DNA of 13,163 nucleotides from a virus, in the IMG/VR virus record IMGVR_UViG_3300045988_075523, positions 1 through 13,163 of that record; one strand, written 5' to 3'. Position 1 is the stretch's first letter; every line of letters begins with the position of its first letter. Below the pieces are notes generated by a model. It was not told where the DNA came from. It was given only the letters and a program-made list of their open reading frames with translations, and ran no database searches. Position numbers and translations under genes: made by a program. Shown here piece after piece: positions 1 to 13,163 of this stretch.

Positions 1-11
1 GCGATACTCCC

Positions 12-113
12 GTCCGCCGTACACGGACACTTTTCCCCAAATGTCCGCCGTACACGGACACTCTGGCTGATTGTGCGTCCGTCACGGACAGATTGTACGC
101 CGTATACGGACAC
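12..113. repeat. Reiterated GTCCG..CGGAC units inside the ITR (4 copies); candidate origin or terminal-protein-complex binding sites
   Basis: The 20-mer gtccgccgtacacggacact is identical at 12-31 and 43-62 (31-bp period). Diverged copies are gtccgtcacggacag (77-91) and gtacgccgtatacggacac (95-113). Each carries short inverted arms. The set is mirrored in the right ITR. Confidence 0.8.
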
Positions 114-121
114 GGGATTGC

Positions 122-136
122 GTTCAATTATTGAAC
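122..136. promoter_or_regulatory. 15-bp palindrome copy 1 (GTTCAATTATTGAAC)
   Basis: Exact 15-mer at the inner edge of the left ITR, 13 nt upstream of the -35 of the left early promoter. Confidence 0.8.
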
Positions 137-149
137 GATAAAAGAAATA

Positions 150-178
150 TGGACACTTGCGCGCTATGGGTGTATAAT
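150..178 (+). promoter_or_regulatory. Left early sigma-A-type promoter
   Basis: TGGACA (150-155), 17-nt spacer, TATAAT (173-178). TG abuts the -10 (ggTGTATAAT). An SD and ATG at 211 follow. Confidence 0.7.
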
Positions 179-210
179 AGAGAATATAAATTAGAAAGTG
201 AGGTTTTACC

Positions 211-513
211 ATGAACAATGCTAAGTTTTTAGTCACTAATTTTACAGAGCGCTTACGCGGTCGATTAGATAGCGCTTTCATCAAGGACAATGTTATAGTT
301 AAATATAACGACTTCATGCAGTCTATTGATATAATGCTTTATCGCGTTGAGGGCAAAGTCGTTTTTAGGTATGATTGCCCCGTTAAAGATATTGTGTATA
401 ATGATAGCGGAAGAGTTAGTGATTTATTAGAGCGCTTAACCTGCTACTGTATTAATGACTATAAAGAATTATTAGCTTGTGAAGCAATTAGGGGGAGGGT
501 GAAAGAATGTTAA
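211..513 (+). CDS. Hypothetical early protein (100 aa)
   Basis: ATG preceded by GTGAGG SD at 7-nt spacing. First gene after the left early promoter. Its stop overlaps the next start (507). No motif recognised. Confidence 0.7.
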   Translation: MNNAKFLVTNFTERLRGRLDSAFIKDNVIVKYNDFMQSIDIMLYRVEGKVVFRYDCPVKDIVYNDSGRVSDLLERLTCYCINDYKELLACEAIRGRVKEC

Positions 514-1112
514 GCATAAATGAAATCACGGCCTTGCGCCGCGCCGCTTCCAAGGGTGACGCGGAAGCTTATAAAACCTTACTGGCAGAAAATGCGCGCC
601 TTGCCAAGCGCGCTAATACCCGTATGGTTGCGCTTGAAAAGGCGGGGCTTGCTTACTATGCCTACGAGCGCGCGGCGGGTTATCTTGCTTCCGAATACGG
701 CGCTAACCGCTTTACCACAAGCAAAAAGAAGCTCGCAGACCCTTACGACCTTGCACAAAACATATTGGAAGAACGGACTTTTTTGCGCGCGGAAACGTCA
801 ACAATATCGGGACAAAAGCGCGTTCGTGCGGCACGTATGCAGGCTTTTGCAAATATTGGCGTTTCTCTTCCGCAGGGCAGAGAGGACGATTTTTTAAGGT
901 TTCTCGGCTCTGACACCGTGCAAGCGGCATTAAGTGCCGTTGGGCGTAAAACTGCTATATCGGGGGAATTGGTGGAGAAACTGGCGGGCGCGTATGACAG
1001 CGCCGCGGAAAAAGCAGGCGTTAAACGCTATATAGTCAATCTATTAAATAAGTTTGCGAGTGGTGATATAGCGTATAATGAAGTAACCGACTATTTGGAA
1101 AGGAAATCATAA
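507..1112 (+). CDS. Putative terminal (priming) protein (201 aa)
   Basis: Strong GGGGGAGGG SD. Lies directly upstream of the protein-primed DNA polymerase and is translationally coupled to it (TAATG overlap at 1110-1114), as in phi29 and Cp-1. The segment KRANTRMVALEKAG loosely recalls phi29 p3 NRANMRYQFEKNAYG (from memory). The CDS is confident; the function is inferred from position. Confidence 0.5.
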   Translation: MLSINEITALRRAASKGDAEAYKTLLAENARLAKRANTRMVALEKAGLAYYAYERAAGYLASEYGANRFTTSKKKLADPYDLAQNILEERTFLRAETSTISGQKRVRAARMQAFANIGVSLPQGREDDFLRFLGSDTVQAALSAVGRKTAISGELVEKLAGAYDSAAEKAGVKRYIVNLLNKFASGDIAYNEVTDYLERKS

Positions 1113-3196
1113 TGGAACAGATTTACATAAACACGCAAGCGGGAAAGCGCTTAGAAACTGTATACAATATCAACGATTTTCCATACAGTTTTACAAACTA
1201 TGATTTTGAGATTGTCCGCAAAGCGCGGAAAGGGTCTTACTACAACATTGACGCGGCTTTCGATATTGAAGCAACTACTATTCAAGGGAAAGAAAAGCCA
1301 GTTGCATTTATGTATCAGTGGCAGTTTTGCTTACATGATAACGTGTGCTTTGGGCGCACTTGGGACGAGTTCAAAACATTTATCGAACGATTACGCAAGG
1401 GCTTTCAGTTATCTGACGGCGTGCGCTTAGTCGTTTATGTACATAACCTTGCTTATGAGTTCCAGTTTTTCCGCAACTTTTTTGAGATACAGAATATCTT
1501 TGCAACAGACCCGCGAAAAGTTATTTCCGTGCAGATAAGCGGCATAGAGTTCAGATGTTCTTACAAGCTCTCTAATATGTCTTTAGAAAAATTTTGCTCG
1601 TCCTCGAAAGGGTGTATCTATTGGAAAAAGGACGGCGGCTCGTTCAACTACGAGAAGCTGCGAACGCCCTCAACGCCGCTTACGGACATGGAAAAGGAAT
1701 ATTGCTATTGTGACGTGCGCGGATTGTGCGAGTGCATACGCGCTCTCATGGTGGAAGATACTCTTGCAACTATCCCTTTAACGTCTACTGGCTATGTTCG
1801 CAGAGAAGCACGCCACGCCGTGAAAGAAAATCCCGCTAACCATGAAAAGCTGAAGAGTTTATGTATTGATGAGAATAAATATATATTATTGCGTACCGCC
1901 CGACGCGGCGGCAATACGCACGCTTTGGCGCTATATTCCAACGAGGTGATAGAGGGCGTAAAAAGCAAAGATAAGAAGTCAAGTTATCCCGCTTCTATGC
2001 TTCTTTATGACTACCCCATGTCGCCCTTTTTGCAGATAAAGGGGCAGAAAGAGTTCTACAAAAGACTTGTCGCGGCTAATATGGCTATGTTAATAGACGT
2101 TACTTTTCGCGGCTTAGCAATTAAAAATATGCGAACAATTCCATATATCGCGCGCGCAAAATGCACCCAGTTAGAGTGCCGCGGTGCGCTGTTTGACAAT
2201 GGACGAATTATACGTGCAAGCTCCTGCCGTATGGTATGCACTGACGTGGATTTCCGTATCATAGTCGAGCAGTACACGGCGGACGATATAGAAATAAATG
2301 AGTGCTATATATCAGAATATGCCCCGTTGCCGAAAGAGTTTCGCGAGTGCGTCCGTGCTATGTTCATAGAAAAAGAGAAGCTACGGGACGGCGACCCGTA
2401 TTTATATGCAAAATTCAAAAATAAAATAAATGCTCTTTTTGGCATGATGCTGACGGATATATGCCACCCGCGTATTGAATACAATCCAAACGGACAGACA
2501 GAGGACATAGACGGGGAGAACGGTCTTTTTGAATGTGAAGTAGGAGATATAGAGGAAGAATTGCGACAGTACTATAAATCGCGCAATAGCTTTCTCGCTT
2601 ATCAGTGGGGCGTATGGGTAACAGCACACAGCCGAGCCGCATTGCAGGACGGCTTGAACGCCGTCGAGCGCGACGGCCTTTACACGGACACTGATAGCGT
2701 TAAGTATATAGGCGACCACGACGCGGACTTTGAGCGCCTTAATCATTCAATAATTAAACTTGCAGAAAAGCGCGACGTTCCCGCCTATATCGACACGCCA
2801 AAAGGACGCGTATATCTTGGAACGTGGGAGAACGACGGCGAGTATGCGCGTTTCAAAACTTGCGGTGCAAAGAAATACGCCTACGAGGACAAAAAGGGCT
2901 TGCATATCACGGTGGCAGGACTTAATAAGGAAAGCGGCGCGGAATACATCAAGCAGCAGGGCGGCATTGACGCGTTTAACATTGGCACTGTATTTCCCGA
3001 AAAGTGGGCGAAAAGAACCGTATCATATTTCAACGACGAGAAAAAGCCCTATATTTTGACCGTAACCAACGAGCGCGGGGAACGGGAAAAGATATTGACG
3101 GGAAGCAATATAGCGATTGTACCCACGACCTATACTCTTGGTATCACAGAAGAATATGCAGACTTGATAGATTACGCGCGGGCATTTCGTGACTGA
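1112..3196 (+). CDS. Protein-primed family-B DNA polymerase (694 aa)
   Basis: Exo I FDIEAT. Exo II HNLAYEFQF. Exo III YCYCDVRGL. Motif A DKKSSYPASM (DxxSLYPS-like). Motif B KNKINALFGMM (Kx3NSxYG-like). Motif C YTDTDS. KxY motif GAKKYAY. Size and ITR context fit phi29 gp2-type enzymes. Confidence 0.93.
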   Translation: MEQIYINTQAGKRLETVYNINDFPYSFTNYDFEIVRKARKGSYYNIDAAFDIEATTIQGKEKPVAFMYQWQFCLHDNVCFGRTWDEFKTFIERLRKGFQLSDGVRLVVYVHNLAYEFQFFRNFFEIQNIFATDPRKVISVQISGIEFRCSYKLSNMSLEKFCSSSKGCIYWKKDGGSFNYEKLRTPSTPLTDMEKEYCYCDVRGLCECIRALMVEDTLATIPLTSTGYVRREARHAVKENPANHEKLKSLCIDENKYILLRTARRGGNTHALALYSNEVIEGVKSKDKKSSYPASMLLYDYPMSPFLQIKGQKEFYKRLVAANMAMLIDVTFRGLAIKNMRTIPYIARAKCTQLECRGALFDNGRIIRASSCRMVCTDVDFRIIVEQYTADDIEINECYISEYAPLPKEFRECVRAMFIEKEKLRDGDPYLYAKFKNKINALFGMMLTDICHPRIEYNPNGQTEDIDGENGLFECEVGDIEEELRQYYKSRNSFLAYQWGVWVTAHSRAALQDGLNAVERDGLYTDTDSVKYIGDHDADFERLNHSIIKLAEKRDVPAYIDTPKGRVYLGTWENDGEYARFKTCGAKKYAYEDKKGLHITVAGLNKESGAEYIKQQGGIDAFNIGTVFPEKWAKRTVSYFNDEKKPYILTVTNERGEREKILTGSNIAIVPTTYTLGITEEYADLIDYARAFRD

Positions 3197-3227
3197 AAAA
3201 TTTTTTGAAAAAATTCAAAAAAATGTG
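3197..3227 (+). promoter_or_regulatory. A/T-tract (UP-element-like) region with TTTTGAA-AAAA-TTCAAAA inverted arms
   Basis: aaaaattttttgaaaaaattcaaaaaaa lies immediately upstream of the -35 at 3228. The role is inferred. Confidence 0.35.
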
Positions 3228-3256
3228 TTGACTTTTACCATTAAAAGGTGTATTCT
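3228..3256 (+). promoter_or_regulatory. Second early sigma-A-type promoter
   Basis: TTGACT (3228-3233), 17-nt spacer, TATTCT (3251-3256), with the same ggTGTAT context as the two end promoters. Confidence 0.65.
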
Positions 3257-3318
3257 ATAAGAGAAGTAAGGAACAGCACTTCATACAATGCAACTTTAAG
3301 AAAGAGAGGACTAAGACA

Positions 3319-3948
3319 ATGAGTAAAGAAATCACAACTACTAAGTTAACCTTAACGACCGAACAGCGCGAAAGCGCTATTAAGAGAATACAGAAAGGAC
3401 TTGCAGGCGTTGAGCGCGGCTATATCAATATAGCCGCTGACGTGGCAAAACTGGCAGACGCCGCCGCTTATACCGAAGTAGGTTATAAAAACATTTATGA
3501 CATGTGCGACGTTCTTTTCGGCATGAGCCGCGGCACTGTTTCCAATTTGCGCTCGATTGTAAAACGCTTCTTTGACAGCAACTATAAGATGCTTCCCGAA
3601 TATAAGGACTTCTCTGTTACCGCCTTGCTTGCTATGAAAGACCTTACAGACGAAGAAATACAGTTACTCGAGCTCACACCCGAAATGAGCAATAAAGAGT
3701 TGCGCGAGATTATCGCAAGTTTGAACGCCGAGAGCGCACCTGCTATTGAGGACAGCGAAGCAGAGAGCGGAACAGACAGCGAAGCAGAGAGCGAAGCAGA
3801 CAGCGAAGAAGCCGCACCCGACAGAGAGCCGAAGCGCTTGCAGTTATTTTGGAACTCCGAAACTGATGCCGACGGAAATAAGCTGATTAAGGCAATGCAG
3901 GAAGCAAAAGCAATGAACTATGACTTTGTAGAGGTCACGGTATTATAA
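3319..3948 (+). CDS. Putative DNA-binding protein: ParB/KorB-like HTH core with acidic low-complexity C-terminal region (209 aa)
   Basis: GAGAGGA SD 8 nt upstream and its own promoter. GMSRGTVSNLRSIVKRF ... FSVTALLAMKDL ... ELREII resembles the ParB/Spo0J HTH region (GKSRPHIANHLRLL ... LSMGHGRTLLGL ... from memory). No GERRxRA N-terminal CTPase motif. DSEAES repeats at aa 145-165. Confidence 0.45.
   Translation: MSKEITTTKLTLTTEQRESAIKRIQKGLAGVERGYINIAADVAKLADAAAYTEVGYKNIYDMCDVLFGMSRGTVSNLRSIVKRFFDSNYKMLPEYKDFSVTALLAMKDLTDEEIQLLELTPEMSNKELREIIASLNAESAPAIEDSEAESGTDSEAESEADSEEAAPDREPKRLQLFWNSETDADGNKLIKAMQEAKAMNYDFVEVTVL
3751..3813 (+). repeat. 24-bp tandem repeat (about 2.6 units) encoding DSEAESGT/DSEAESEA/DSEEAAPD
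   Basis: gacagcgaagcagagagcg is identical at 3751-3769 and 3775-3793. A partial third unit starts at 3799. Confidence 0.85.
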
Positions 3949-3953
3949 AAAAT

Positions 3954-4014
3954 AAGCGGCGCGCGGGCGTTCAATAATTGAACGCGCCGCAAGCGTCAAG
4001 CAAGCGCCGCTTGC
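3954..4014 (+). other. GC-clamped nested or alternative hairpin cluster between the early and late modules
   Basis: aagcggcgc (3954-3962) can pair either with cgcgccgc (3983-3990), enclosing palindrome copy 2, or with gcgccgctt (4004-4012). A separate 6-bp hairpin is gcaagc-gcc-gcttgc (4000-4014). No U-tract follows. Confidence 0.5.
3969..3983. promoter_or_regulatory. 15-bp palindrome copy 2 (GTTCAATAATTGAAC)
   Basis: Exact 15-mer at the apex of the GC-clamped hairpin, 81 nt upstream of the ATG at 4065. Confidence 0.8.
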
Positions 4015-4017
4015 CAG

Positions 4018-4033
4018 TGTTTCACGTGAAACA
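4018..4033. promoter_or_regulatory. parS: Perfect chromosomal-type parS (ParB/Spo0J site)
   Basis: TGTTTCACGTGAAACA is the fully palindromic form of the consensus TGTTNCACGTGAAACA. It lies 31 nt upstream of the ATG at 4065. Confidence 0.6.
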
Positions 4034-4064
4034 TTGAGTAAACAAAACAAAGAGAGGTAGTAAC

Positions 4065-4391
4065 ATGAAAAACATTAACAACGCAATCAACTTCACAAAA
4101 AAGGACGTTTTCAACGCAAACAACGGCAAGGCAATTAAAGACCTTGTAGGCGAAAAGCTAACCGTTACTGGTATTGCTTTTGGCACTGACGTGATGCAGG
4201 AAACGGGCGAAGAACGGGAAATGGTCGCAATCAAGACCGACAAGGGTATTGTCACAAGTGTGTCAGATACCGTAAAGAAATCACTTCTTGACCTTGCACC
4301 TATCATTGAAGAAGACGGTAAAGCAACCGTCACACCCGAAGTGCGCACAAGTGCAAAAGGGCGTGATTTTATCGTTCTTATCCTCGAATAA
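4065..4391 (+). CDS. phi29 p5-like single-stranded DNA-binding protein (108 aa)
   Basis: AGAGAGG SD. FNANNG...EEREMVAIKTDKGIVTSVSDTVKKSLLDL...SAKGRDFIVLIL parallels phi29 p5 FNAQTG...[30 protein letters not shown]...SSKGNVFFSLQL (recalled sequence; needs HHpred). Confidence 0.55.
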   Translation: MKNINNAINFTKKDVFNANNGKAIKDLVGEKLTVTGIAFGTDVMQETGEEREMVAIKTDKGIVTSVSDTVKKSLLDLAPIIEEDGKATVTPEVRTSAKGRDFIVLILE

Positions 4392-5431
4392 TGGCGGGGG
4401 AGAAAAAACCTTTTTTCTTTGATGTCCGCGGGCGTAGCGTTCAACCGTTCCAATTTTTTATCGGCGGGCGCGGGATAGGTAAAACCTATTCAGCGCTTGA
4501 CGCCGTGCGAGAGGGCAGTTTTAAGGACGCGGACGGGTCAACTTTCAAGATAGATAAAGTTATGTTTTTGCGCCGTTCCGAAACCGACATAACAAAAGCG
4601 GCAGAAAGCAACCCGTTCAAGAAGCTAAACAGCGACAAGGGCGACGCGATACAATGTGACTTTGTAAAGCGCTTGGGCTTTGGGCATATATGGCGCGACA
4701 ACGGAGAAGAACGGCAGGAGATAGGTTACACGGCGGCGCTTTCCACTTTTGCAGGCGTCCGCGGTACGGACTTTTCAGACGTCAATCTGATAATCTTTGA
4801 TGAGTTTATTCCCGAAAAGACTGCACGTCCTATCAAGGCAGAGGGGGAAGCAATGCTTCACTTGATAGAGACTATTAACCGCAACCGAGAACTTGTAGGA
4901 GTGCCGCCCGTGCGGGTGCTTTTTCTCGCAAACAGTATTACGCTTAAAAGTCCGATACTGTTTACATTAAACCTTGTGCAGGTAGTTGCTAATATGATAG
5001 GCAAGGGGCAACACAAATACACGGACAAGAGGCGTTGTCTTTATATCGAAGTAGTGGATAAAGACAGCATAGGCGTAAGCGGTGCAAAGTCGGAAACAGC
5101 GCTCTACAAACTGGCACGTAATACAGACTTTGAAAGGCAGGCGCTTGGAAATGAGTTTACAGGCGACAGCTTGCACCTTGTCCGAAAGGTAAACCTTTCA
5201 GAATATAAACCCTTTCTTGTTTTTGGCGGGTGTACGATTTATACACACAAAAGCAATGGTTTATGGTATGCCGCTATGCGGTTAGACACCGCGCCGTTAC
5301 ATTTCCAAGAATATGAAAACGAAAAGTTTCGGATGTTTTTCGGTGCGCGTTTTCGCTTAATTCTTAGCGGCGGCATACTGATTTTTGACAATATCAATAC
5401 AAAAATGTATTTAGAAACGGCCTTATTATAA
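4391..5431 (+). CDS. DNA encapsidation ATPase, phi29 gp16-like (346 aa)
   Basis: Walker A FIGGRGIGKTYS (phi29 VIGARGIGKSYA). Walker B LIIFDEFIPEK (TIVFDEFIREK). INRNRE (FRNRER). LANSITLKSPILFTLNLV (LSNAVSVVNPYFLFFNLV). GNEFTGDS (DNQFIGDS). TAATG coupling to the upstream SSB gene. Confidence 0.9.
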   Translation: MAGEKKPFFFDVRGRSVQPFQFFIGGRGIGKTYSALDAVREGSFKDADGSTFKIDKVMFLRRSETDITKAAESNPFKKLNSDKGDAIQCDFVKRLGFGHIWRDNGEERQEIGYTAALSTFAGVRGTDFSDVNLIIFDEFIPEKTARPIKAEGEAMLHLIETINRNRELVGVPPVRVLFLANSITLKSPILFTLNLVQVVANMIGKGQHKYTDKRRCLYIEVVDKDSIGVSGAKSETALYKLARNTDFERQALGNEFTGDSLHLVRKVNLSEYKPFLVFGGCTIYTHKSNGLWYAAMRLDTAPLHFQEYENEKFRMFFGARFRLILSGGILIFDNINTKMYLETALL

Positions 5432-5514
5432 GGGCGGTGACTACTGCAAAAAGTAGGCGCGCAGGGCTGACCGCGGAAGCGGGGCGCGTGACTTAGCCAG
5501 TCTAACCGCTCACC
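5432..5514 (+). ncRNA. Candidate structured RNA (pRNA-like or 3'-UTR element)
   Basis: Hand fold. Closing stem 5432-5438/5505-5511 (7 bp, one G-U that works only on the + strand). Hairpins: CTACT-gcaaaa-AGTAG (5441-5456), CGCGC..CCGC-GGAA-GCGG..GCGCG (5458-5488) and GACT-uagcc-AGUC (5490-5502). Internal-loop GGCUG (5465-5469) is complementary to loop UAGCC (5494-5498). GC-rich relative to its flanks. Confidence 0.3.
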
Positions 5515-5530
5515 TTTTAGCAATGTAATT

Positions 5531-5553
5531 ATGTTTCACGTGAAACATTTTTT
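5531..5553 (+). terminator. Possible intrinsic terminator formed by the parS palindrome plus a T6 tract
   Basis: ATGTTTC-ACGT-GAAACAT stem-loop followed by tttttt (5548-5553). The stem is AT-rich, so termination is probably partial. Confidence 0.4.
5532..5547. promoter_or_regulatory. parS: Perfect chromosomal-type parS (ParB/Spo0J site), second copy
   Basis: TGTTTCACGTGAAACA, extended to the 18-bp palindrome ATGTTTCACGTGAAACAT (5531-5548). It lies 8 nt from palindrome copy 3. Confidence 0.6.
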
Positions 5554-5555
5554 GG

Positions 5556-5570
5556 GTTCAATAATTGAAC
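5556..5570. promoter_or_regulatory. 15-bp palindrome copy 3 (GTTCAATAATTGAAC)
   Basis: Exact 15-mer, 18 nt upstream of the ATG at 5589 and immediately 5' of the SD. Confidence 0.8.
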
Positions 5571-5588
5571 AGAAAGCGAGGTTGTAAC

Positions 5589-5846
5589 ATGGCAGACGAA
5601 CAGAACACAGAGAATCAGGAAGAACAGAACAGCGGCCAGGAGCAGAACGACACCGCCGCAGAAATGGCGGCACTGAAAGAGCTGTTAGAAGACACAAACA
5701 AAAGCATAGCGTCACTTAAAAAAGACAACGAAGAATTAAAGAAGCTAAATTTTAAGTTAGCAATGCAGGCAGAGCGCTCGGAAGTACAGCAAAAGAGCGT
5801 AGAGGACTGCTTGCATGAGTGCTTTATGCCTACTATGAAAAAGTAG
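5589..5846 (+). CDS. Putative scaffolding protein (85 aa, acidic N-terminus, coiled coil)
   Basis: ATG with GCGAGG SD, preferred over the TTG at 5565 that lies inside the palindrome. Small, helical and Glu/Lys-rich. It directly precedes the capsid gene, like phi29 gp7. Confidence 0.6.
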   Translation: MADEQNTENQEEQNSGQEQNDTAAEMAALKELLEDTNKSIASLKKDNEELKKLNFKLAMQAERSEVQQKSVEDCLHECFMPTMKK

Positions 5847-5863
5847 GGGAAAGGAAGAAAAAA

Positions 5864-6997
5864 ATGCAAACTAATCAGATTTACGGGCTTATTAACAGCC
5901 TTGCACAGCAGAGTATGGGAGAAAGCGCTATCACTGTTACAGATACAGCGTCGCTTGTATCTCTCGGCAATGCAGTCTTATCCAGTAACACAAACACAGA
6001 CGCGTTTACGAATGTCCTTGTGCAGAGAATTGCGCGGACTATCGTATCATATCGTGCCTATAGCAATCAGTTAGGCAACCTAGCAAAAAGCAATATTGAG
6101 TGGGGAGCTATCGTGCAGAAGTTGAAAGTGGCAATGCCGAAAGCGACAGAGGACGAAACCTACAACCTTGTAGACGGTCAAAGCGTTGATATGTTTAAGG
6201 TATCGAAGCCGACGACAAAGCAGAAATTCTTTGTAAAGCGTACGCCTTACAACTTCTTTGTAACTTTTCAGCGCGTAGCAATTCGCGAAGCATTTACAAG
6301 CGTTGACGCTTTCGGGGCATGGGTTTCCGCGGTATATGGAGAAGTGCAGAATAAGTTGGAGCTTTCAAGCGAGAACGAGGGGCGCGCCGCAATGGCTAAC
6401 ATGGCGGGGCAGGTTTACAATGCCGCAAAGCCCGCGCAGGTGGTGAAGTTAATTACACTTTATAAAGCAGAAACGGGAAAGACCGTTACCCGTGCCAACT
6501 ACAAAAGCGACTCCGATTTTATGCGCTTTTGCATGCGCAGGTGGAAAGAGGACAGCAAAAACATGCGTTCTATGTCAACTTCCTACAACGCAGAGGGCGA
6601 AGAAAGACACACGCCCGAAGAATTGCAGAAGTTTGCTTGTCTTAACTCTTTCATGGTCGCAATGGAAACTAATGTTTACTATTCGGCGTTCCATGACGAA
6701 TACTTAAAGAAAGTGGTTAACTTAGAGATACCATATTGGCAGGCAGAGCAGACAAGGGACGCTATCTCTGTTAAGATTGAGGACGGAACAGAAGAAAGCG
6801 GCACAAAAGAAGTGCAGATTAACGGGCTTGTTGCTATGATGTTTGATACTGACGCGCTCGGCACGTTCAAAGAAGAAGTGGAAACATTGAACACGCCTAT
6901 TAACGCGGCGGCAAGGTATTGGAATACATATTGGCATGCCGAAAAGTTATGGTTTAACGACTTGTCTGAGAACTGTATTATTTACACCCTTGAATAA
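5864..6997 (+). CDS. Major capsid protein, phi29 gp8-like (377 aa)
   Basis: ATG at 5864 after GGGGAAAGGAAG. FTNVLVQRIA and RYWNTYWHAE parallel phi29 gp8 FITSLVDRIG and LYWNYYYHVW (recalled). The position after the scaffold gene fits. Confidence 0.8.
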   Translation: MQTNQIYGLINSLAQQSMGESAITVTDTASLVSLGNAVLSSNTNTDAFTNVLVQRIARTIVSYRAYSNQLGNLAKSNIEWGAIVQKLKVAMPKATEDETYNLVDGQSVDMFKVSKPTTKQKFFVKRTPYNFFVTFQRVAIREAFTSVDAFGAWVSAVYGEVQNKLELSSENEGRAAMANMAGQVYNAAKPAQVVKLITLYKAETGKTVTRANYKSDSDFMRFCMRRWKEDSKNMRSMSTSYNAEGEERHTPEELQKFACLNSFMVAMETNVYYSAFHDEYLKKVVNLEIPYWQAEQTRDAISVKIEDGTEESGTKEVQINGLVAMMFDTDALGTFKEEVETLNTPINAAARYWNTYWHAEKLWFNDLSENCIIYTLE

Positions 6998-7013
6998 TGC
7001 TTTCCCAAAGCGC

Positions 7014-7021
7014 TTGAAACA
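7014..7021. promoter_or_regulatory. parS half-site-like TTGAAACA
   Basis: Matches 7 of 8 bases of the right parS half GTGAAACA. It lies 6 nt upstream of palindrome copy 4, the same order as at 5532/5556. Weak on its own. Confidence 0.25.
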
Positions 7022-7027
7022 TTAACA

Positions 7028-7042
7028 GTTCAATAATTGAAC
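7028..7042. promoter_or_regulatory. 15-bp palindrome copy 4 (GTTCAATAATTGAAC)
   Basis: Exact 15-mer, 15 nt upstream of the ATG at 7058. Confidence 0.8.
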
Positions 7043-7057
7043 GGAAAGGCGGTTGCA

Positions 7058-8449
7058 ATGGTTGATATAACCTTTTACACGTTTGAAAAAAGAAGAAACA
7101 GTACAAAGCAACCGCCCGCAGATGCGGGAACGGTTGTGAAGTGCGACTTCAAAAGCCAAGTGCAGGTAGATGCGCCAATTTTTATGATTGAATGGGAGAG
7201 TGTGCCACAGTGGAATTATTGCAAAATGTTCAATAATTTTTACTACATCACCGATATTACAATAGTACGCGATAAGTTGTACTTGGTGCGGTGTGTTTTG
7301 GACGAACTGGCGACTGCTAAAACTGACATTGGAAACACGGAAGCGTTTATTCTGTATTCAGCGAGTAAATACACAAAACTCGCGCAGGACAACCGTTTAT
7401 GTATTCTTCCATATGGGGACTGGAGCGAGCGAAAAATCACTTTTTATCCGCCGTTATCTTTGATTGGTACTTTCGTATTGTCGGCAGTGGGTAAGGGAGA
7501 GAAAGCATATAACTTTACCACTGGCATGTGCCGCTCTTACTTCATGGACTATACGCAGATGCAGGCATTTGTAAACAACTTTACTTCTACCGAAGTATGG
7601 ACAACGTTAAAGCAGTATTTTACCAATCCCGTAGACGCAATAGCTGATATGTACTGGCTACCCGTTCCAGTCGATACGCTTACAGACACAATCGTTACAA
7701 CGGTTAAGTTAGGAGAGTATGACACGGGAGTAAATGCTAAGTGCTTAAAAAATCCGTTAATGACGTCAAGAGCAATAGGAAAAAATTTGACTATTCCTTG
7801 GAAGTATGACGATTTTCGCAGATGTTCCGAATGGTCGCGACTGCTTATGTTTCACCCGCTTATAGGGTTGACAGAGTTAAACGCAACGGAGTGGATTTTA
7901 GAGGATAGCATAAATTGCGACACGTATATTGATTTTATCAGCGGCGCAGTAACAGTGGAGTTAAAAAGCGACATAGGAAGCGACGCGGGGCGCGTGAAAC
8001 ATCAAATTTTAAGCGGAAATTGTCGTGTTAATCTCCCTTACGGCAGAACAGACAGCCGTATAGGACAACTTATAGGCTCTCTCGGAAATATTGGCAATGC
8101 GCAACTATCCATTGCGACGGGCAACGCGACGGGAGCTGTTGGCAACCTTGCAGGCGCTCTTACACAGTTTGCAAAGCCGATTGGAAGCAGTGTAAACGGG
8201 TCTTTTAGTGGCTCATATATACCCGTCATAGCTGATACAAATATCCATATGTATGTATACAGCTATGAGGGCACGACAGAGCCCGAAGCAATAGCGACTA
8301 TCATGGGACGCCCATTTTTTCAAGTCGATAAGATAGGCAATCATAGCGGATTTATACAGACGCAAGACGCAAGTGTGAGCGCTTCCTTTGACGCGCCAAT
8401 TATTGACCGTATTAACGCGGCACTGAATGGGGGTATATTCTATGAGTAA
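7058..8449 (+). CDS. Tail knob / distal tube protein, phi29 gp9-like (463 aa)
   Basis: ATG at 7058 with GGAAAGG SD. N-terminal FYYITDITIVRDKLYLVRCVLDELATAKTDI parallels gp9 WFYAFVTELEF..VHFEIDVLQTW. A Gly/Ala-rich loop (GSLGNIGNAQLSIATGNATGAVGNLAGAL) resembles the gp9 membrane-active loop. C-terminal GFIQTQDASVSASFDAPIIDRINAALNGGIFYE parallels [33 protein letters not shown] (recalled). Confidence 0.75.
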   Translation: MVDITFYTFEKRRNSTKQPPADAGTVVKCDFKSQVQVDAPIFMIEWESVPQWNYCKMFNNFYYITDITIVRDKLYLVRCVLDELATAKTDIGNTEAFILYSASKYTKLAQDNRLCILPYGDWSERKITFYPPLSLIGTFVLSAVGKGEKAYNFTTGMCRSYFMDYTQMQAFVNNFTSTEVWTTLKQYFTNPVDAIADMYWLPVPVDTLTDTIVTTVKLGEYDTGVNAKCLKNPLMTSRAIGKNLTIPWKYDDFRRCSEWSRLLMFHPLIGLTELNATEWILEDSINCDTYIDFISGAVTVELKSDIGSDAGRVKHQILSGNCRVNLPYGRTDSRIGQLIGSLGNIGNAQLSIATGNATGAVGNLAGALTQFAKPIGSSVNGSFSGSYIPVIADTNIHMYVYSYEGTTEPEAIATIMGRPFFQVDKIGNHSGFIQTQDASVSASFDAPIIDRINAALNGGIFYE

Positions 8450-9404
8450 AAAAGACAAAAGCCGCTCTTGGTGGCAGGCAATCAAAGAAGCGTGCGGCGT
8501 AAGGCCTACTGATGTGAACGGGCAGGACACCTTGCGGACACAGTTCTATTTTTCAGAGCTGTTGGAGCTTGTGAAAGGGCGCTTCAAGATTGACTGCCCC
8601 GACGAATGGGACAAAGATTTCATTCTTAACCAATTAATTTTAGCAGGCTTCTTTGGTGTGACTGATACACCGCTTGGCGTCGTTCCCTGCATATGCGCGC
8701 CGAAAGGTCTTAATATTTTTCAGCGCCCAAATAGTTTTACAATCAGCGGTGCGGAACTTGTAAGCGCTATCGCGGGAAGTGACTTAGAGAGAACGCTCGG
8801 CGTTGACGGGGCACTTGTATATCTACGGAGTAGCGGATATTCTTTTCAAACACTCGTGCCGCTCTTGCAAGTATACGCGGAGAAGTTGGCAACGTGTGAC
8901 GCGTCCATAGATGTTTCCTTAATAAACAGCCGTGTTGCTTATGTATTCGAGGTGGCAGACGGGAAGCAGGCAGAGGACGCCAAAAAGTTATATGGGAAGA
9001 TTTCAAGCGGTGAGCCCGCGGTATTTATGCGCTCTAACACTAATCCTGCCGTTGCACTCTCCACAGATAGTGGCTTCAACTTCCACATAAACAATGTGAA
9101 AAATGCCTTTATTGCGGGAGAAGTGCAGGACGTAAAGCGGACGATTTACAACGAATTTTTGACACGCATAGGACTTAATAACGCCAACACAGACAAGAGA
9201 GAACGATTGAATAGCGACGAAGTGAACGCGAATAATGACGAGATAAAAGCGGCGGTAAGCTATTGGAAGAAAAATCTTGAGAAATGCTGTAAGGAAGTAA
9301 ATAGGCTTTTTCCCGATATTACTTTTAATATCACCATTGAGGAGAGTGAAAGCGGTTCAATTATTGAACGCGGAGAGGAGAGGAGAGAAAGTGAAGTTAA
9401 TTGA
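8442..9404 (+). CDS. Portal / upper collar connector, phi29 gp10-like (320 aa)
   Basis: ATG at 8442 overlaps the upstream stop. IYNEFLTRIGLNNANTDKRERLNSDEVNANNDEI parallels gp10 [34 protein letters not shown] (recalled). Acidic C-terminal tail. Confidence 0.85.
   Translation: MSKKDKSRSWWQAIKEACGVRPTDVNGQDTLRTQFYFSELLELVKGRFKIDCPDEWDKDFILNQLILAGFFGVTDTPLGVVPCICAPKGLNIFQRPNSFTISGAELVSAIAGSDLERTLGVDGALVYLRSSGYSFQTLVPLLQVYAEKLATCDASIDVSLINSRVAYVFEVADGKQAEDAKKLYGKISSGEPAVFMRSNTNPAVALSTDSGFNFHINNVKNAFIAGEVQDVKRTIYNEFLTRIGLNNANTDKRERLNSDEVNANNDEIKAAVSYWKKNLEKCCKEVNRLFPDITFNITIEESESGSIIERGEERRESEVN
9355..9369. promoter_or_regulatory. 15-bp palindrome copy 5 (GTTCAATTATTGAAC), inside the portal 3' end
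   Basis: Exact 15-mer encoding SIIE in the portal tail, 21 nt upstream of the GTG at 9391. Confidence 0.8.
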
Positions 9405-9969
9405 CCTTTGCGAGATTTACGCGATAAACAGCGGCGCAGGAAGTAACTATAACGCAATCTTTGCGGATATAGAACTGGACAGCCGCTTGCAGATTAGCGA
9501 CTTTTGCAACCTGCTGTTTCAGCGCTACGGCAACGCTGAGCCCGCTTACAACACTACCAACGTGTTTAAGCTCTTTTCAGATGCTTGGTTTAAGAGAAAC
9601 GCCGACACGATACAACGTATACTTGACGCGTTGGAACTGGATTACAATCCTATTGAAAACTACGACAGACATGAAAAAATCACAAGAGCGCAGGACACGG
9701 GCGGGACGGTTACTGGAACGGGACACGCAACTGACGACTTAAGCGCGTTCAATAGCGGCGCTTATGTGAAAAACACACAAGCGGAGAACAGCAACGAAAC
9801 GAAAAGTATAGGAACGGAGAACGAAACAACAACGAATGAAACACACGGAAACATAGGTGTCACGACGTCCCAACAGATGCTAACAAGTGAGATTGAATTG
9901 CGGCGCTACAATCTGCTCGAGTGGATAGTGGATAAGTACAGCGGAGAGCTTTTGAGCTCGGTTTATTAG
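9391..9969 (+). CDS. Putative lower collar / head-tail adaptor protein (192 aa)
   Basis: GTG start 5 nt after GGAGAGGAGAGGAG, preferred over the SD-less TTG at 9337. The gene follows the portal as gp11 does in phi29. LDYNPIENYDR motif. Function is by synteny only. Confidence 0.45.
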   Translation: MKLIDLCEIYAINSGAGSNYNAIFADIELDSRLQISDFCNLLFQRYGNAEPAYNTTNVFKLFSDAWFKRNADTIQRILDALELDYNPIENYDRHEKITRAQDTGGTVTGTGHATDDLSAFNSGAYVKNTQAENSNETKSIGTENETTTNETHGNIGVTTSQQMLTSEIELRRYNLLEWIVDKYSGELLSSVY

Positions 9970-9984
9970 AGAGGAGTTGAGAAC

Positions 9985-10815
9985 ATGGCATACGGGGCTT
10001 TTGAGTTTCCAAACGCGTCTTTTTATGACAGCGACTTACGGGAACTATTGGCAATGTATAAAAAGTTAGTATCCGAATATGACAGCATTTTATCAACAGT
10101 CGAAGCATTAAACAAAAAAGTTAATGATTTATACAACTATGTTGATGCGGAGATTGCGGAAGCGGTAAAAGCCGCACTCGCGGAAGTCAATGCTAAGATT
10201 GTAGCTATCAATGAAAAGATAGCAACGATTAACGGTATTCTTACCGCACATGAAGAAAAGATAAACAACTTAAAGCAGTACACCGACACGCGCTTTACCG
10301 AGGAAAGAAACATCACAGATAGCACGATTGAGCAGACACGGAAAGAGATTGAAGCGGATATACGAAAGTTAACCGTTGAATTTTCCGCGGACTTGTTGAA
10401 GTTGTGGGAGTATGTGCAGGACTTATCTTTTACTCTCCCGCCTATTTATAATCCCGTAACGGGGAGATATGAAGCGATACCAAAAGCGGTAGATGACATA
10501 TGGAACGCCGTGCGCGTTCATGCTTTGACGGTTGCGCGGTATAGCGCGGACGCGTTGACGGTAGACGAATATAAGGCGCTCATGCTTACGGCAACAGAGT
10601 ACGCAGTAAAGGGACGTTCAATTATTGAACTGCCCGAAGCGCTCAACCGTTTGGCAGGTAACTGGACAACGGTAAATAATGCAATAGCGAGCGCGGGCCA
10701 AGTGGGTGCAGTAAACAGTTTGAGCGCCGCGGAGTATGCCGCCTTGAACTTAACCGCAGACGCGTACAGCGCGGAAAAGTTATCAGTTTCACAATATGAT
10801 TTTAACGGCGTATAA
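9985..10815 (+). CDS. Putative tail fibre / appendage protein with coiled coil and LTxxEY decapeptide repeats (276 aa)
   Basis: GAGAGGAG SD. Heptad-like helical region at aa 25-135. Six 10-aa units L(T/S)xx(E/A/Q)Yxxxx at aa 181-210 and 246-275. Sits in the phi29 gp12 position. Confidence 0.45.
   Translation: MAYGAFEFPNASFYDSDLRELLAMYKKLVSEYDSILSTVEALNKKVNDLYNYVDAEIAEAVKAALAEVNAKIVAINEKIATINGILTAHEEKINNLKQYTDTRFTEERNITDSTIEQTRKEIEADIRKLTVEFSADLLKLWEYVQDLSFTLPPIYNPVTGRYEAIPKAVDDIWNAVRVHALTVARYSADALTVDEYKALMLTATEYAVKGRSIIELPEALNRLAGNWTTVNNAIASAGQVGAVNSLSAAEYAALNLTADAYSAEKLSVSQYDFNGV
10616..10630. promoter_or_regulatory. 15-bp palindrome copy 6 (GTTCAATTATTGAAC), internal to a CDS
   Basis: Exact 15-mer encoding SIIE in the same frame as copy 5. 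No start codon or SD lies downstream. Confidence 0.75.
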
Positions 10816-10842
10816 GCCGTAAAAGAAAGGAGATAAACATAT

Positions 10843-11256
10843 ATGTTTACTAACAAAACTAAAAACTACAACTTGCCGCAGTATCTCGGCACGGATAAGG
10901 CAGAATGGCTTGACAACAACGCCGCTTTTGCTACGATTGATACAGCACTGAAAGAAGCGGCACTTAACGCAGAAAGTGCGGGAAGCAATGCCACCAACGC
11001 CGCGACAGTGGCGGCGCAGGCACAGAGCGCCGCAGACAACGCGCAGGCTACTGCTACAAGAGCGCAGTCTACCGCAGACACAAACGCAAGCAATATAGCG
11101 GGTCTTAATACACGCGTGGCGCAGGTGGAAACGGGAGTTGCAAACAATAGTAGAGCGCTCGGCGGTTTTTCCTTTGTGGCATTAACACAGACACAATATG
11201 ATGCGCTTGAAACAAAAGACCCGAATACGGTCTACTTAGTAAAGGCAGGTGTATAA
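10843..11256 (+). CDS. Putative fibre protein (137 aa; Ala/Gln-rich helical shaft)
   Basis: AAAGGAG SD. N-terminal YNLPQYLGTDKAEWLDNNAAFATID and C-terminal LTQTQYDALETKDPNTVYLV are typical of Gram-positive phage fibre proteins. It shares the LTxxQYDAL motif with the upstream gene. Confidence 0.45.
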   Translation: MFTNKTKNYNLPQYLGTDKAEWLDNNAAFATIDTALKEAALNAESAGSNATNAATVAAQAQSAADNAQATATRAQSTADTNASNIAGLNTRVAQVETGVANNSRALGGFSFVALTQTQYDALETKDPNTVYLVKAGV

Positions 11257-11257
11257 C

Positions 11258-11677
11258 ATGGGAGTTAAAGTTGGAGCAAGTGAAGTGGGCGTATACTTAG
11301 GCGCGGAGAAGTTAGCAGGACTTGACGGCGTAGTGACATTAGCACCGTTTCAGCATAACAAGAGAACTAACACTTACAGTTATTTATACTTTGATTGCGG
11401 AGAGGGTGCTACTTTGCATATATCGGGCGTTACTCTTGGTAGCGGCTCAGAGTTACATGTAAGAGTAGGTGACGACTTGACCTTTGACGACGCTAATGAA
11501 AACACTTTAACGGGCTTAGCTCTTGGAAATATCGCAAGCGGTGAAGAAAAAGATTTCGCTGTGTCGGGGCATAGATATGCTTCCATTCAGTATATCAACA
11601 CAAGCGGAACGGCACAGAGATATGGTGCAAGCGGAAGTTGCACTATTAGCGGAGCGCAGGCAGTAAAGGCGCAGTAA
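11258..11677 (+). CDS. Hypothetical beta-rich protein, possible receptor-binding or fibre-tip module (139 aa)
   Basis: ATG 1 nt after the upstream stop. Gly/Ser/Thr/Val-rich composition. Lies between the fibre genes and the lysis cassette. Function is a guess. Confidence 0.3.
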   Translation: MGVKVGASEVGVYLGAEKLAGLDGVVTLAPFQHNKRTNTYSYLYFDCGEGATLHISGVTLGSGSELHVRVGDDLTFDDANENTLTGLALGNIASGEEKDFAVSGHRYASIQYINTSGTAQRYGASGSCTISGAQAVKAQ

Positions 11678-11686
11678 GGAGTAGTC

Positions 11687-11917
11687 ATGAATGATATTTT
11701 AACTATGGTATCTACCGTGGGTTTCCCCACGGTAGCATGTATCGGTATTGCGTGGTTTTGCAAGTATACAAACGACAACTACCGCGAGGACTTAAAGGAA
11801 GCAAACATCGAACACAAAGCGGAAATGAATAAAATAACGGAAGCCTTAAACAATAACACGATAGCACTTACAAAGTTGTGCGAGCGTATGGAGAAAGGAG
11901 AAGACAAAGATGCTTGA
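11687..11917 (+). CDS. Holin, BhlA/UviB-like (76 aa)
   Basis: TAAGGAG SD. One N-terminal TM segment (VSTVGFPTVACIGIAWF) followed by a charged helical tail (YREDLKEANIEHKAEMNKITEAL), like BhlA. Overlaps the endolysin start. Confidence 0.7.
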   Translation: MNDILTMVSTVGFPTVACIGIAWFCKYTNDNYREDLKEANIEHKAEMNKITEALNNNTIALTKLCERMEKGEDKDA

Positions 11918-12614
11918 GGGGTACGACATTTCACACCATCAACGAAACTCGACAGTTGCAGAATTGCACGAAGATGCGGATTTCTTTATATGCAAGGCGA
12001 CAGAAGGCGCGACTTACAAAGACCCTAAGTTTTTAACACATATCAACGAAGCGCTTTCCTATGGAAAGTTAATAGGAGCTTATCACTTTGCACGCCCCGA
12101 AAAACGACCGACAACAGAGGGCGCGAAAGTTGAAGCCGCTAATTTTGTTAGAACGGTAAGCCCTTTTATTGGTAAATGCTTGTTCGCGCTTGACTGGGAA
12201 ATGACTGCATGGAACTATGACTTGTCATGGGCGCGTGCGTGGCTCGATGAGGTTTACCGACTTACGGGAGTAAGACCCGTGATGTATTGTCACATCAATA
12301 AAACAAACAGATGCGAGGAGATTGTAAGCGGCAACTATGGCTTGTGGGTAGTGTATTGGGGCAAGAATAGCGGCGCGGAGATTGAGCTTCCTAAAGAAAA
12401 AATTGCGACTTGGCGGACTTGGGCGCTTTGGCAGTGGACGAGTAAACCGCTTGACCGTGATAAATTTAACGGAAATGTTGAGCAGTGGAAGAAGTATTGC
12501 GCGAGCGACTTGAAAGAGAATGACGAGGGAGCAGAAGAACACTTTTGCGGATGCGAGTTTTGCAAGGACTTTGAGAAGTTCGCAGAGGAACACGGGTACA
12601 AGAAAACAGAATAA
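11910..12614 (+). CDS. Endolysin, GH25 muramidase (234 aa) with a short Cys-containing C-terminal tail
   Basis: GYDISHHQ, FFICKATEGATYKDPKF, GAYHFARP, LFALDWE and LDRDKFNG match GH25 (Cpl-1 / LysA-type) signatures. No SH3, LysM or choline-binding repeat recognised. The tail contains CGCEFC. Confidence 0.88.
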   Translation: MLEGYDISHHQRNSTVAELHEDADFFICKATEGATYKDPKFLTHINEALSYGKLIGAYHFARPEKRPTTEGAKVEAANFVRTVSPFIGKCLFALDWEMTAWNYDLSWARAWLDEVYRLTGVRPVMYCHINKTNRCEEIVSGNYGLWVVYWGKNSGAEIELPKEKIATWRTWALWQWTSKPLDRDKFNGNVEQWKKYCASDLKENDEGAEEHFCGCEFCKDFEKFAEEHGYKKTE

Positions 12615-12629
12615 TGTTTCACTTGAACA
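12615..12629. promoter_or_regulatory. Degenerate parS-like site (TGTTTCAC-TTGAACA)
   Basis: The left half is perfect. The right half has one substitution and one deleted A. It also forms a small hairpin (aatgtt/aacatt) just after the lysin stop. Confidence 0.3.
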
Positions 12630-12641
12630 TTAAGACAAAAT

Positions 12642-12676
12642 AAAGACCTACACGGTAAAGTGTAGGTCTTTCTTTT
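12642..12676. terminator. Bidirectional rho-independent terminator
   Basis: 12-bp stem aaagacctacac / gtgtaggtcttt with loop ggtaaa. cTTTT lies on the + side and an A-run upstream (T-run on the - strand). It sits between the convergent lysin gene and the right-end gene. Confidence 0.85.
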
Positions 12677-12685
12677 AGGTTATAA

Positions 12686-12931
12686 TTAAATTCTAAACAT
12701 ATCAACGTGGCTATTGCAGAAAGTTGCTGTTTCTCCGTTCTCTAATGTTATAATTAAATACTCATTGTATTCGTCCCTGCTATTCTCGTCTGTATCAAGT
12801 CCTATCTCTGTTGCTATGTCTCCCGTTACTACCTCATAACCTCTTATTCTGTTATACTTAACCTCTGCTACTTCCTCGCTACTTACTTCATACTTAACTC
12901 CGTTGTAAATCTTAACTTTAACATTTATCAT
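12686..12931 (-). CDS. Hypothetical acidic right-end early protein (81 aa)
   Basis: The only convincing minus-strand gene. AAAGGAAAGG SD, its own promoter and a terminator. 16 Asp/Glu versus 8 Lys/Arg. Confidence 0.7.
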   Translation of the reverse strand: MINVKVKIYNGVKYEVSSEEVAEVKYNRIRGYEVVTGDIATEIGLDTDENSRDEYNEYLIITLENGETATFCNSHVDMFRI

Positions 12932-12966
12932 ATTATTTACCTTTCCTTTCTTTATCTGATATAGTA

Positions 12967-12995
12967 AGTATACACCTTGACGAAGAATAATGCAA
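12967..12995 (-). promoter_or_regulatory. Right early sigma-A-type promoter (leftward)
   Basis: On the minus strand: TTGCAT (12995-12990), 17-nt spacer, TATACT (12972-12967), in the aggTGTATACT context. Confidence 0.65.
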
Positions 12996-13001
12996 GCAAA
13001 A

Positions 13002-13016
13002 GTTCAATAATTGAAC
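13002..13016. promoter_or_regulatory. 15-bp palindrome copy 7 (GTTCAATAATTGAAC)
   Basis: Exact 15-mer just outside the right ITR, 6 nt upstream of the -35 of the right promoter. Centre-to-centre distance to copy 8 is 26 bp. Confidence 0.8.
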
Positions 13017-13025
13017 TACGAATAT

Positions 13026-13163
13026 TCGTTCAATAATTGAACGCAATCCCGTGTCCGTATACGGCGTACAATCTGTCCGTGACGGACGCACAATCAGCCA
13101 GAGTGTCCGTGTACGGCGGACATTTGGGGAAAAGTGTCCGTGTACGGCGGACGGGAGTATCGC
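13026..13163. repeat. Right inverted terminal repeat (138 bp)
   Basis: Exact reverse complement of 1-138. Confidence 0.97.
13028..13042. promoter_or_regulatory. 15-bp palindrome copy 8 (ITR mirror of copy 1)
   Basis: Exact 15-mer at the inner edge of the right ITR. Confidence 0.8.

Follow-up and report, generated by a model that had tools for sequence, protein, structure and literature searches.

Chromosomal parS centromeres, reportedly treated by Lin and Grossman in 1998 and by Livny et al. in 2007, belong to the ParABS systems of Firmicutes and other bacteria. We found a 16-bp palindrome identical to these centromeres (PMC7022226, PMC10197239) in two perfect copies, sites A and B, in the IMG/VR virus record IMGVR_UViG_3300045988_075523, whose positions 1 to 13,163 (the window, i.e., the whole stretch of DNA that we analyzed, 13,163 bp) constitute a complete phi29-like podovirus genome that is linear and protein-primed. 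The closest described counterpart is phage phi29, for which passages of PMC2731898 describe five parS sites and an involvement of the host Spo0J in spore entrapment (citing Meijer et al. 2005), as well as six Spo0A boxes. Like phi29, Nf and B103, the window is a protein-primed podovirus with several host-consensus parS sites and no phage ParB; phi29 further displays a parS directly after the stop of the packaging-ATPase gene, as does site B, and B103 and Goe1 carry the perfect 18-mer version of the site. The window differs from phi29 in that its sites are fully symmetric, whereas those of phi29 have one asymmetric position (TGTTTCACGTGGAACA), in lacking Spo0A boxes, in its distant proteins, in its human-gut origin and in encoding an additional protein with a predicted ParB/Noc-like fold, which we term p209. 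Small genomes with inverted terminal repeats (ITRs) and multiple perfect copies of TGTTTCACGTGAAACA, mostly intergenic, are likewise featured by the Guelinviridae of Clostridium perfringens (phiCP7R, phiZP2, phiCPV4, CPQ1-10), but these copies mostly form tandem pairs ~25 bp apart, in a different gene order and without a p209-family gene.

Unlike the chromosomal centromeres, the sites of the window lie on a 13-kb linear viral genome, away from any oriC and with no adjacent parAB operon, and their number and spacing turn over fast among its close relatives. The plasmid-prophage cassettes (ParAB-parS of P1 and N15 and the parABS of extrachromosomal actinophages) also place centromere-like sites on a phage genome, but those elements encode ParA and a full-length ParB and use an element-specific parS, whereas the window uses the host consensus; no ParA or ParBc domain was found in any window open reading frame (ORF) and, with neither ParA nor a full-length ParB, the window falls outside this class. 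On sequence grounds, it is a further and more clear-cut case of the known phi29 parS/Spo0J trick in a distant gut lineage, and not a new mechanism. Our literature search found no paper reporting this 16-mer in a phage, and the genome paper on C. perfringens podoviruses mentions neither parS nor Spo0J; the breadth of parS in phages and the swapping of parS and hairpin alleles described below may be new observations.

The two sites and the elements around them are as follows.

4018 to 4033: parS site A, between the p209 gene and the SSB gene, with no U-tract after it
5532 to 5547: parS site B, after the packaging-ATPase gene and a structured noncoding element, followed by T6
3319 to 3948, + strand: p209, 209 aa, matching phrog_15077
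3956 to 3990, + strand: GC-rich hairpin GCGGCGCG...CGCGCCGC at the 3' end of p209, upstream of site A
5432 to 5518, + strand: structured noncoding element of ~85 nt after the ATPase gene, seen in minimum-free-energy and consensus folds
122 to 136, 3969 to 3983, 5556 to 5570, 7028 to 7042, 9355 to 9369, 10616 to 10630, 13002 to 13016 and 13028 to 13042: the eight copies of a 15-bp palindrome, pal15 (GTTCAATWATTGAAC)

Both sites score 16/16 against the fully symmetric form of the consensus TGTTNCACGTGAAACA, and site B is part of an 18-nt perfect palindrome, ATGTTTCACGTGAAACAT (5531-5548). The same 16-mer is used as the perfect chromosomal parS consensus in PMC10197239 and is tabulated in PMC7022226, in agreement with the first-pass annotation of this DNA, which had reported two perfect copies at these positions and equated them with the ParB/Spo0J consensus. 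Base composition predicts 3.7e-6 copies in the window and a chance of about 7e-12 of two or more, and the window holds no further site with up to three mismatches. Each site has a pal15 copy beside it, as had also been noted: site A follows, at a distance of 34 bp, the copy at 3969-3983, which is the 15-bp palindrome GTTCAATAATTGAAC enclosed by the GC-rich hairpin (kept in the clade alignment of region A), and site B precedes the copy at 5556-5570 by 8 bp, with a scaffold-like gene beyond.

Close relatives of the window were reached only via p209 homologs (71-92% identity), which led to near-identical 13-kb human-gut contigs, including from a Hadza sample; samples that carry these phages are, for example, ERZ27287182, ERZ4560783 (Hadza) and SRR9293151. 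Searches of IMG/VR and metagenomes seeded with the ATPase gave only distant relatives (at most 44% identity), mostly without parS, and p209 homologs with 42-47% identity gave access to two more syntenic phages of 12 kb. The close relatives share the gene order of the window, and across them (given here by our L-numbered loci) the 16-mer occupies four fixed intergenic slots, in which an unchanged 16-18-mer is set in flanks that vary among genomes.

Slot A, downstream of p209: perfect in L233 as in the window; a single mismatch in L226, L231 and L232; hairpin allele in L222 and L227-L230
Slot B, downstream of the ATPase gene and the RNA element: perfect in L223, L227, L228, L231 and L232 as in the window; a single mismatch in L224 and L226; hairpin allele in L222; parS absent in L233
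Slot C, directly after the stop codon of the major capsid protein (MCP): perfect in L227, L228 and L231; full hairpin allele in L226; two-mismatch parS in L222; in the window (6997 to 7022) ATGCTTTCCCAAAGCGCTTGAAACAT, a slipped-deletion remnant of the hairpin allele that holds a half-site
Slot D, immediately following the stop codon of the lysin gene: perfect in L227, L228 and L231; a single mismatch in L226; in the window (12614 to 12630) a decayed parS, ATGTTTCACTTG-AACAT, that has undergone one substitution and one deletion

Scanned for the 16-mer in this way, the related phages conserve the sites in position, and even more distant relatives (p209 about 44-47% identical) retain slot B (L223, L224) or slot C (L236). 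Two imperfect sites that the first-pass annotation had seen in the window are real and find their place in this scheme: its degenerate copy at 12615-12629 (TGTTTCACTTGAACA) is the slot D parS, and its half-site at 7014-7021 (TTGAAACA) corresponds to the right-hand arm of a hairpin allele that has decayed, the slipped deletion in slot C having left only the right half visible in a remnant that folds weakly (-2.9 kcal/mol). The hairpin allele, ATGTTTC-CCAAAGCGCTAAAGCGCTT-GAAACAT (e.g., L222 4008-4038 and 5534-5563, L226 7229-7259 and L227 4260-4289), keeps the outer arms of parS, replaces the central ACGT with a GC-rich stem-loop and folds at -12 to -18 kcal/mol, as against -5.5 to -10 kcal/mol for the parS alleles. 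Both of its arms are one base shorter in L227-L230 (ATGTTC/GAACAT), a compensatory shortening which argues that the stem is under selection in this allele. Over short evolutionary times, parS thus appears to have been gained, lost and swapped for plain hairpins. As for the means, the identical 19-nt insert of the hairpin allele turns up at different slots, which points to copying between slots by gene conversion or recombination. The one-mismatch parS variants (L226 4171, 5759 and 12846; L231 4241; L232 4215) are nearly all transitions at the central CpG (CACGTG to CATGTG or CACATG); possible causes are a loss of ParB binding, deamination of methyl-C or an escape from a restriction enzyme specific for CACGTG or ACGT.

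The exact 16-mer recurs well outside this clade. At least 26 phi29-like contigs, recognized by PolB, ATPase, MCP or connector homology, carry it among the 120 contigs listed from IMG/VR, and many of these display 2-5 perfect copies plus one-mismatch copies in quite different contexts; L221 has two copies of TGTTCCACGTGAAACA. Perfect copies are found inside PolB ORFs of 693-728 aa (L034 9223 and 9574; L048 2627 and 2978; L134 3050; L065 2135; L099 4777), and one lies inside the p209-family gene of L236 (4665), where it encodes VSRET; the B. subtilis spo0J gene likewise contains a parS. Such copies inside ORFs, where a terminator would be harmful, argue that the sequence and not only the hairpin is selected. 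Relatives chosen irrespective of parS (~805 kb) hold three perfect matches against 0.0002 expected, two of which are one contig retrieved twice (L005 = L152), so that the distinct sites are two (L005, L195). Among GenBank phages, the 18-mer is present in all C. perfringens phi29-like podoviruses listed, in addition to the Bacillus phages B103 and Goe1. In phiCP7R, there are seven sites (four perfect, three with one mismatch), for the most part paired; by the annotation, six are intergenic and the seventh falls within the annotated 5' end of the terminase gene, whose annotated start may be wrong. In phage phi29, the site is present four times as TGTTTCACGTGGAACA, which departs from the 16-mer at one position and agrees with the consensus TGTTNCACGTGAAACA when read on the opposite strand; one of the four directly follows the stop codon of gene 16 (ATPase), the placement of site B. 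The occurrence of one and the same 16-mer in four slots, in distant lineages, within ORFs and in phiCP7R indicates that the parS sequence itself is selected beyond its hairpin potential, and suggests a wider use of the phi29 trick, extending from Bacillus phages to C. perfringens podoviruses and to many uncultured phi29-like lineages of the gut. Separately, L128 has one perfect copy near each contig end (132 and 11579).

From this conservation, sites A and B would be functional or recently functional, and by analogy with phi29 we infer that host ParB binds them to the benefit of the phage. We posit, with moderate confidence, that they are nucleation sites for the host ParB that serve the retention or segregation of the phage genome, with p209 directed at pal15 instead. 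Under this proposal, chromosomal-type parS would have entered intergenic hubs, where transcription units end, as minimal insertions of 16-18 bp. After injection, host ParB dimers would bind the sites, and ParB, possibly with recruited ParA or SMC machinery, would treat the phage DNA like the origin-proximal part of the chromosome, such that the phage genome would be retained and segregated into daughter cells or forespores when lytic growth stalls, as reported for phi29. That sites come and go so fast within the clade speaks for a conditional and modest benefit. If host ParB does load on these genomes, "lytic" gut phages of the phi29 type would have built-in host carriage and segregation (in carrier states or spores), which would bear on phage persistence, on person-to-person transmission and on the calling of phages as virulent or temperate in virome surveys.

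Several observations weigh against this proposal. Judged from the alleles, parS is dispensable within the clade, its slots alternating with the GC-rich hairpin: L222 has no intact parS, in L226 the central CpG is mutated in each of the three sites, and slots C and D of the window are already lost. The hairpin property of the slots is, by the same comparison, also selected, with a role, for example, at RNA 3' ends or in termination. A DNA-binding protein with a predicted ParB/Noc-like fold, p209, is encoded right next to site A. Only 2 of 77 non-redundant relatives sampled independently of parS contain it, which also rejects the idea of parS being a common feature throughout this phage family. 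The Spo0A box TGTCGAA, through which the phi29 strategy represses lytic growth at early and late promoters, is absent from the window (0 against 1.46 expected), and the relaxed TGNCGAA occurs 6 times against 7.8 expected, with none at the promoter-like site 3228-3256. The analogy with phi29, drawn already in the first-pass annotation, accordingly holds for the phi29-like genome and for the phi29 copies of the site, including the one after the ATPase stop, but not for the Spo0A boxes. Finally, profile searches of genome contigs with the p209 alignment and with the lysin gave no host match.

Hints of the host come from the human-gut origin, the GH25 lysin and a distant p209-family homolog annotated in Anaerostipes sp.; a look-up of the p209 cluster returned no host. 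The suggestion that the sites point to a sporulating Firmicute does not stand, as the parS consensus also serves Actinobacteria and Proteobacteria (PMC7022226), and parS alone is thus not indicative of such a host.

In p209, a predicted N-terminal helix-turn-helix (HTH) domain (~35-138) is followed by an acidic linker of Ser, Glu and Asp and by a small alpha/beta domain at the C terminus. The gene belongs to the conserved core of the 12-13-kb gut phi29-like group, in which the order is always polymerase, p209, SSB and ATPase, and the p209 family (phrog_15077) has 1406 representatives at E<=1e-3. An AlphaFold (AF2) model of residues 1-142 (pLDDT 78) recovered in Foldseek, as its top five matches, exclusively DNA-binding domains of Noc, Spo0J and ParB (prob 0.85-0.98, TM about 0.5, E 0.2-0.8), among them 7ng0 (prob 0.98), 6y93_A (TM 0.50/0.65), 4umk_C (prob 0.92) and 6sdk_A (prob 0.85); the full-length model gave weak matches only. 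The likeness to Noc (6y93) and Helicobacter pylori Spo0J (4umk) extends to the recognition-helix motif G-x-S-R-x-x-[VI]-[SA]-N, and hhalign places the GMSRGTVSN helix of p209 in register with GKSRPHIAN of Spo0J, at a probability of only 0.3%. Unlike Noc and Spo0J, p209 lacks the N-terminal ParB/Srx CTPase domain and the GERR box, has the acidic linker and an unrelated small C-terminal domain, shows no significant profile match to them and probably recognizes a different palindrome. Neither Pfam, including its HTH_ParB family, nor NCBIfam matched p209; searches against PDB sequences, with the single sequence or an 81-member profile, returned only low-complexity noise from the acidic linker; and Pfam found no domains in ten longer family members, whose N-terminal extensions are not recognizable ParB CTPase domains. 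One of the 81 family members matched the PHROG "ParB-like partition protein". The predicted fold of p209 is thus plausibly ParB/Noc-like: of the earlier description as "ParB-HTH-like", a resemblance of the predicted fold is suggested by Foldseek, and sequence-profile support is absent. A phmmer search with B. subtilis Spo0J found nothing in the window and one match, to the N-terminal domain, among 236 loci (L141), and the annotations of phi29 and phiCP7R contain no ParB. The possibility that the p209 family is common to parS-bearing phi29-like phages was rejected by the family HMM, which among the 236 loci matched the group of the window only, and neither the other parS-bearing phi29-like contigs nor phiCP7R or phi29. 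For a family with no annotated function in Pfam, NCBIfam or PHROGs, these resemblances supply a testable DNA-binding hypothesis. The linker (~143-164; 3745-3810), rich in Ser/Glu/Ala/Asp, is encoded by imperfect 12-nt tandem repeats, and its length varies among near-identical relatives (proteins of 197-216 aa).

Two of the pal15 copies lie in the ITRs, and most copies lie ~20 nt upstream of ribosome-binding sites. Most lineages examined carry a repeated palindrome of their own, with copies mostly intergenic: L236 has eight copies of GTTCAACGTTGAAC and two of GTTCAACGCGTTGAAC, L223 has three copies of the 14-mer GTTCAACGTTGAAC and five of the core TTCAACGTTGAA, and L238 and L239 have four copies of GTACAATWATTGTAC; the same scan found no repeated palindrome in L242. 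The palindrome changes with the p209 variant, and parS is invariant and either present (L236, L223) or absent (L238, L239, L242) regardless of p209; L222 has p209 and seven palindrome copies without an intact parS. This covariation suggests an operator-regulator pair and, seen in four lineages, makes the lineage-specific palindrome (here pal15), and not parS, the most likely target of p209.

The first-pass annotation had offered, as an alternative, that p209 binds the parS sites, and pal15 is the likelier target by this covariation and by the distribution of the family HMM. Such binding, by a protein without a CTPase domain, would assemble a private partition or regulatory complex, or block or compete with the host ParB on phage and host DNA. 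It would draw on the Foldseek matches, on the hhalign register of the recognition helix, on the PHROG match of a single family member, and on the position of p209 immediately upstream of site A, together with the L236 parS inside the homologous gene. We nonetheless hold it to be rather unlikely, in that none of the similarity statistics reaches significance (Foldseek E 0.2-2; hhalign probability 0.3%; Pfam and NCBIfam without a match), an intact p209 is found in L222 alongside no intact parS, and likewise in L238, L239 and L242, where there is no site with up to two mismatches, the repeated palindrome rather than parS varies with p209 as expected of a cognate operator, and the parS-bearing phi29-like phages outside the group, phiCP7R and phi29 do without the family. 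Less likely still is a two-part system directed at the segregation machinery of the host, in which host-consensus parS is accompanied by p209 as a non-sliding cap or competitor that would sit on parS, or on parS-like DNA of the host chromosome, and obstruct, divert or supplant the loading of host ParB; p209 would then be an "anti-ParB" or a private centromere protein in a virus that is considered strictly lytic. The evidence for ParB-type sites would serve equally well an improbable third possibility, that multi-parS phage DNA acts as a sponge for host ParB/Spo0J and thereby perturbs Soj/ParA control, segregation or the entry into sporulation. The 2-7 copies per genome in a high-copy replicon and the absence of Spo0A boxes, which speaks against a phi29-style dormancy program, would suit titration, as would the sporulation defect of B. 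subtilis spo0J null mutants, which acts through Soj. The spo0J sporulation defect is tabulated in PMC7022226. Against it, the role given for phi29 in the relevant passages of PMC2731898 is spore entrapment and not a block of sporulation, and the frequent loss of sites in the clade suggests a modest, conditional benefit.

The possibility to which we give the least credence is that the palindromes are mere RNA or DNA hairpins (terminators or stabilizers of 3' ends), identical to parS without ParB function. In the clade of the window, the sites do stand directly after stop codons or at operon ends, T6 follows site B, a stronger GC-rich hairpin with compensatory arm changes is the alternative allele in the same slots, and the one-mismatch variants mostly alter loop positions (CATGTG, CACATG). 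However, a constraint on the hairpin alone would not fix 16/16 bases of the ParB consensus in four slots, and gives no account of the 16-mer in unrelated phi29-like lineages and C. perfringens phages, of its phi29 form or of the copies inside the PolB ORFs of other lineages. The parS hairpins are also weak (-5.5 to -10 kcal/mol, with two GC pairs) and escape the terminator scan, and a U-tract is missing at sites A, C and D. Even site B, for which a terminator function had been proposed from its T6, has only a 7-bp stem with two GC pairs (-5.5 kcal/mol) before the U6 and is not called by the scan; the T6 is present, but such a function would be at most redundant, for the structured element upstream already ends in a stem and U4-U6, and L233 has that element and manages with no parS in slot B. 

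Throughout the 12-13-kb phage group, the structured noncoding element keeps its position. In the window, it ends in CCGCTCACC and UUUU (...CCACCTT), with site B immediately downstream. In six of the seven lineages folded, the two strands of its closing stem are complementary to each other, and the stem differs in sequence between lineages (GGGCGGTGA.../...CCGCTCACC in the window; GGGCGCGCT.../...AGCGCGCCC in L223). Scanned against Rfam at E<=1, the window in its full length gave no match to the packaging RNA (pRNA) or to other families. We consider the element a candidate pRNA analog, or else a candidate regulatory 3'UTR or anti-Shine-Dalgarno element.

The remaining features of the window bear out its earlier description as a lytic-type phage of 13 kb.

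1 to 138: left ITR, 138 nt, 100% complementary to the right copy at 13026 to 13163
1112 to 3196, + strand: type-B DNA polymerase (PolB), phrog_1907, E 8e-48
4065 to 4391, + strand: phi29-type SSB, Pfam 23.9 bits against a cut-off of 25
4391 to 5431, + strand: gp16-type packaging ATPase
5589 to 5846, + strand: scaffold-like gene, ATG at 5589
After the scaffold-like gene, + strand: phi29-type MCP, connector and tail proteins
11910 to 12614, + strand: GH25 lysin

All genes are on the + strand except two small ORFs toward the right end, and the perfect 138-bp ITR marks the window as a complete linear genome of the protein-primed type. Several of its proteins reach the phi29-type Pfam families only at or below the Pfam cut-offs (e.g., PolB, 15.9 bits against 25.8). 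A megablast of the whole window against GenBank phages gave no DNA match, and exact-protein look-ups of its ATPase and of P0001 found neither on record. The ITR is long for a phi29-like phage (6 bp in phi29, 25 bp in phiCP7R) and contains a 20-bp direct repeat, GTCCGCCGTACACGGACACT, three times (12-31, 43-62 and 95-114), plus one pal15 copy. Several close relatives (L226-L232) have an extra ORF of 59 aa between the polymerase gene and p209 (e.g., L226 3324-3503, L227 3428-3607 and L231 3395-3574), which is missing from the window (3197-3318), L222 and L233.

Beyond the phi29-like phages, the perfect 18-mer is found in records of very different viruses among the 281 GenBank phage records that contain it (e.g., PQ006135.1, MG945524.1, NC_003438.1 and OP209175.1). 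These include ssDNA Microviridae, namely Spiroplasma phage 4, gut microviruses and "bajarodino virus", the last with 10-14 reported places per record, each palindromic site being reported more than once. Host-type parS may accordingly be in use well beyond the phi29-like phages, the 18-mer being present also in many phages of Microbacterium, Gordonia, Listeria and Clostridium sporogenes.

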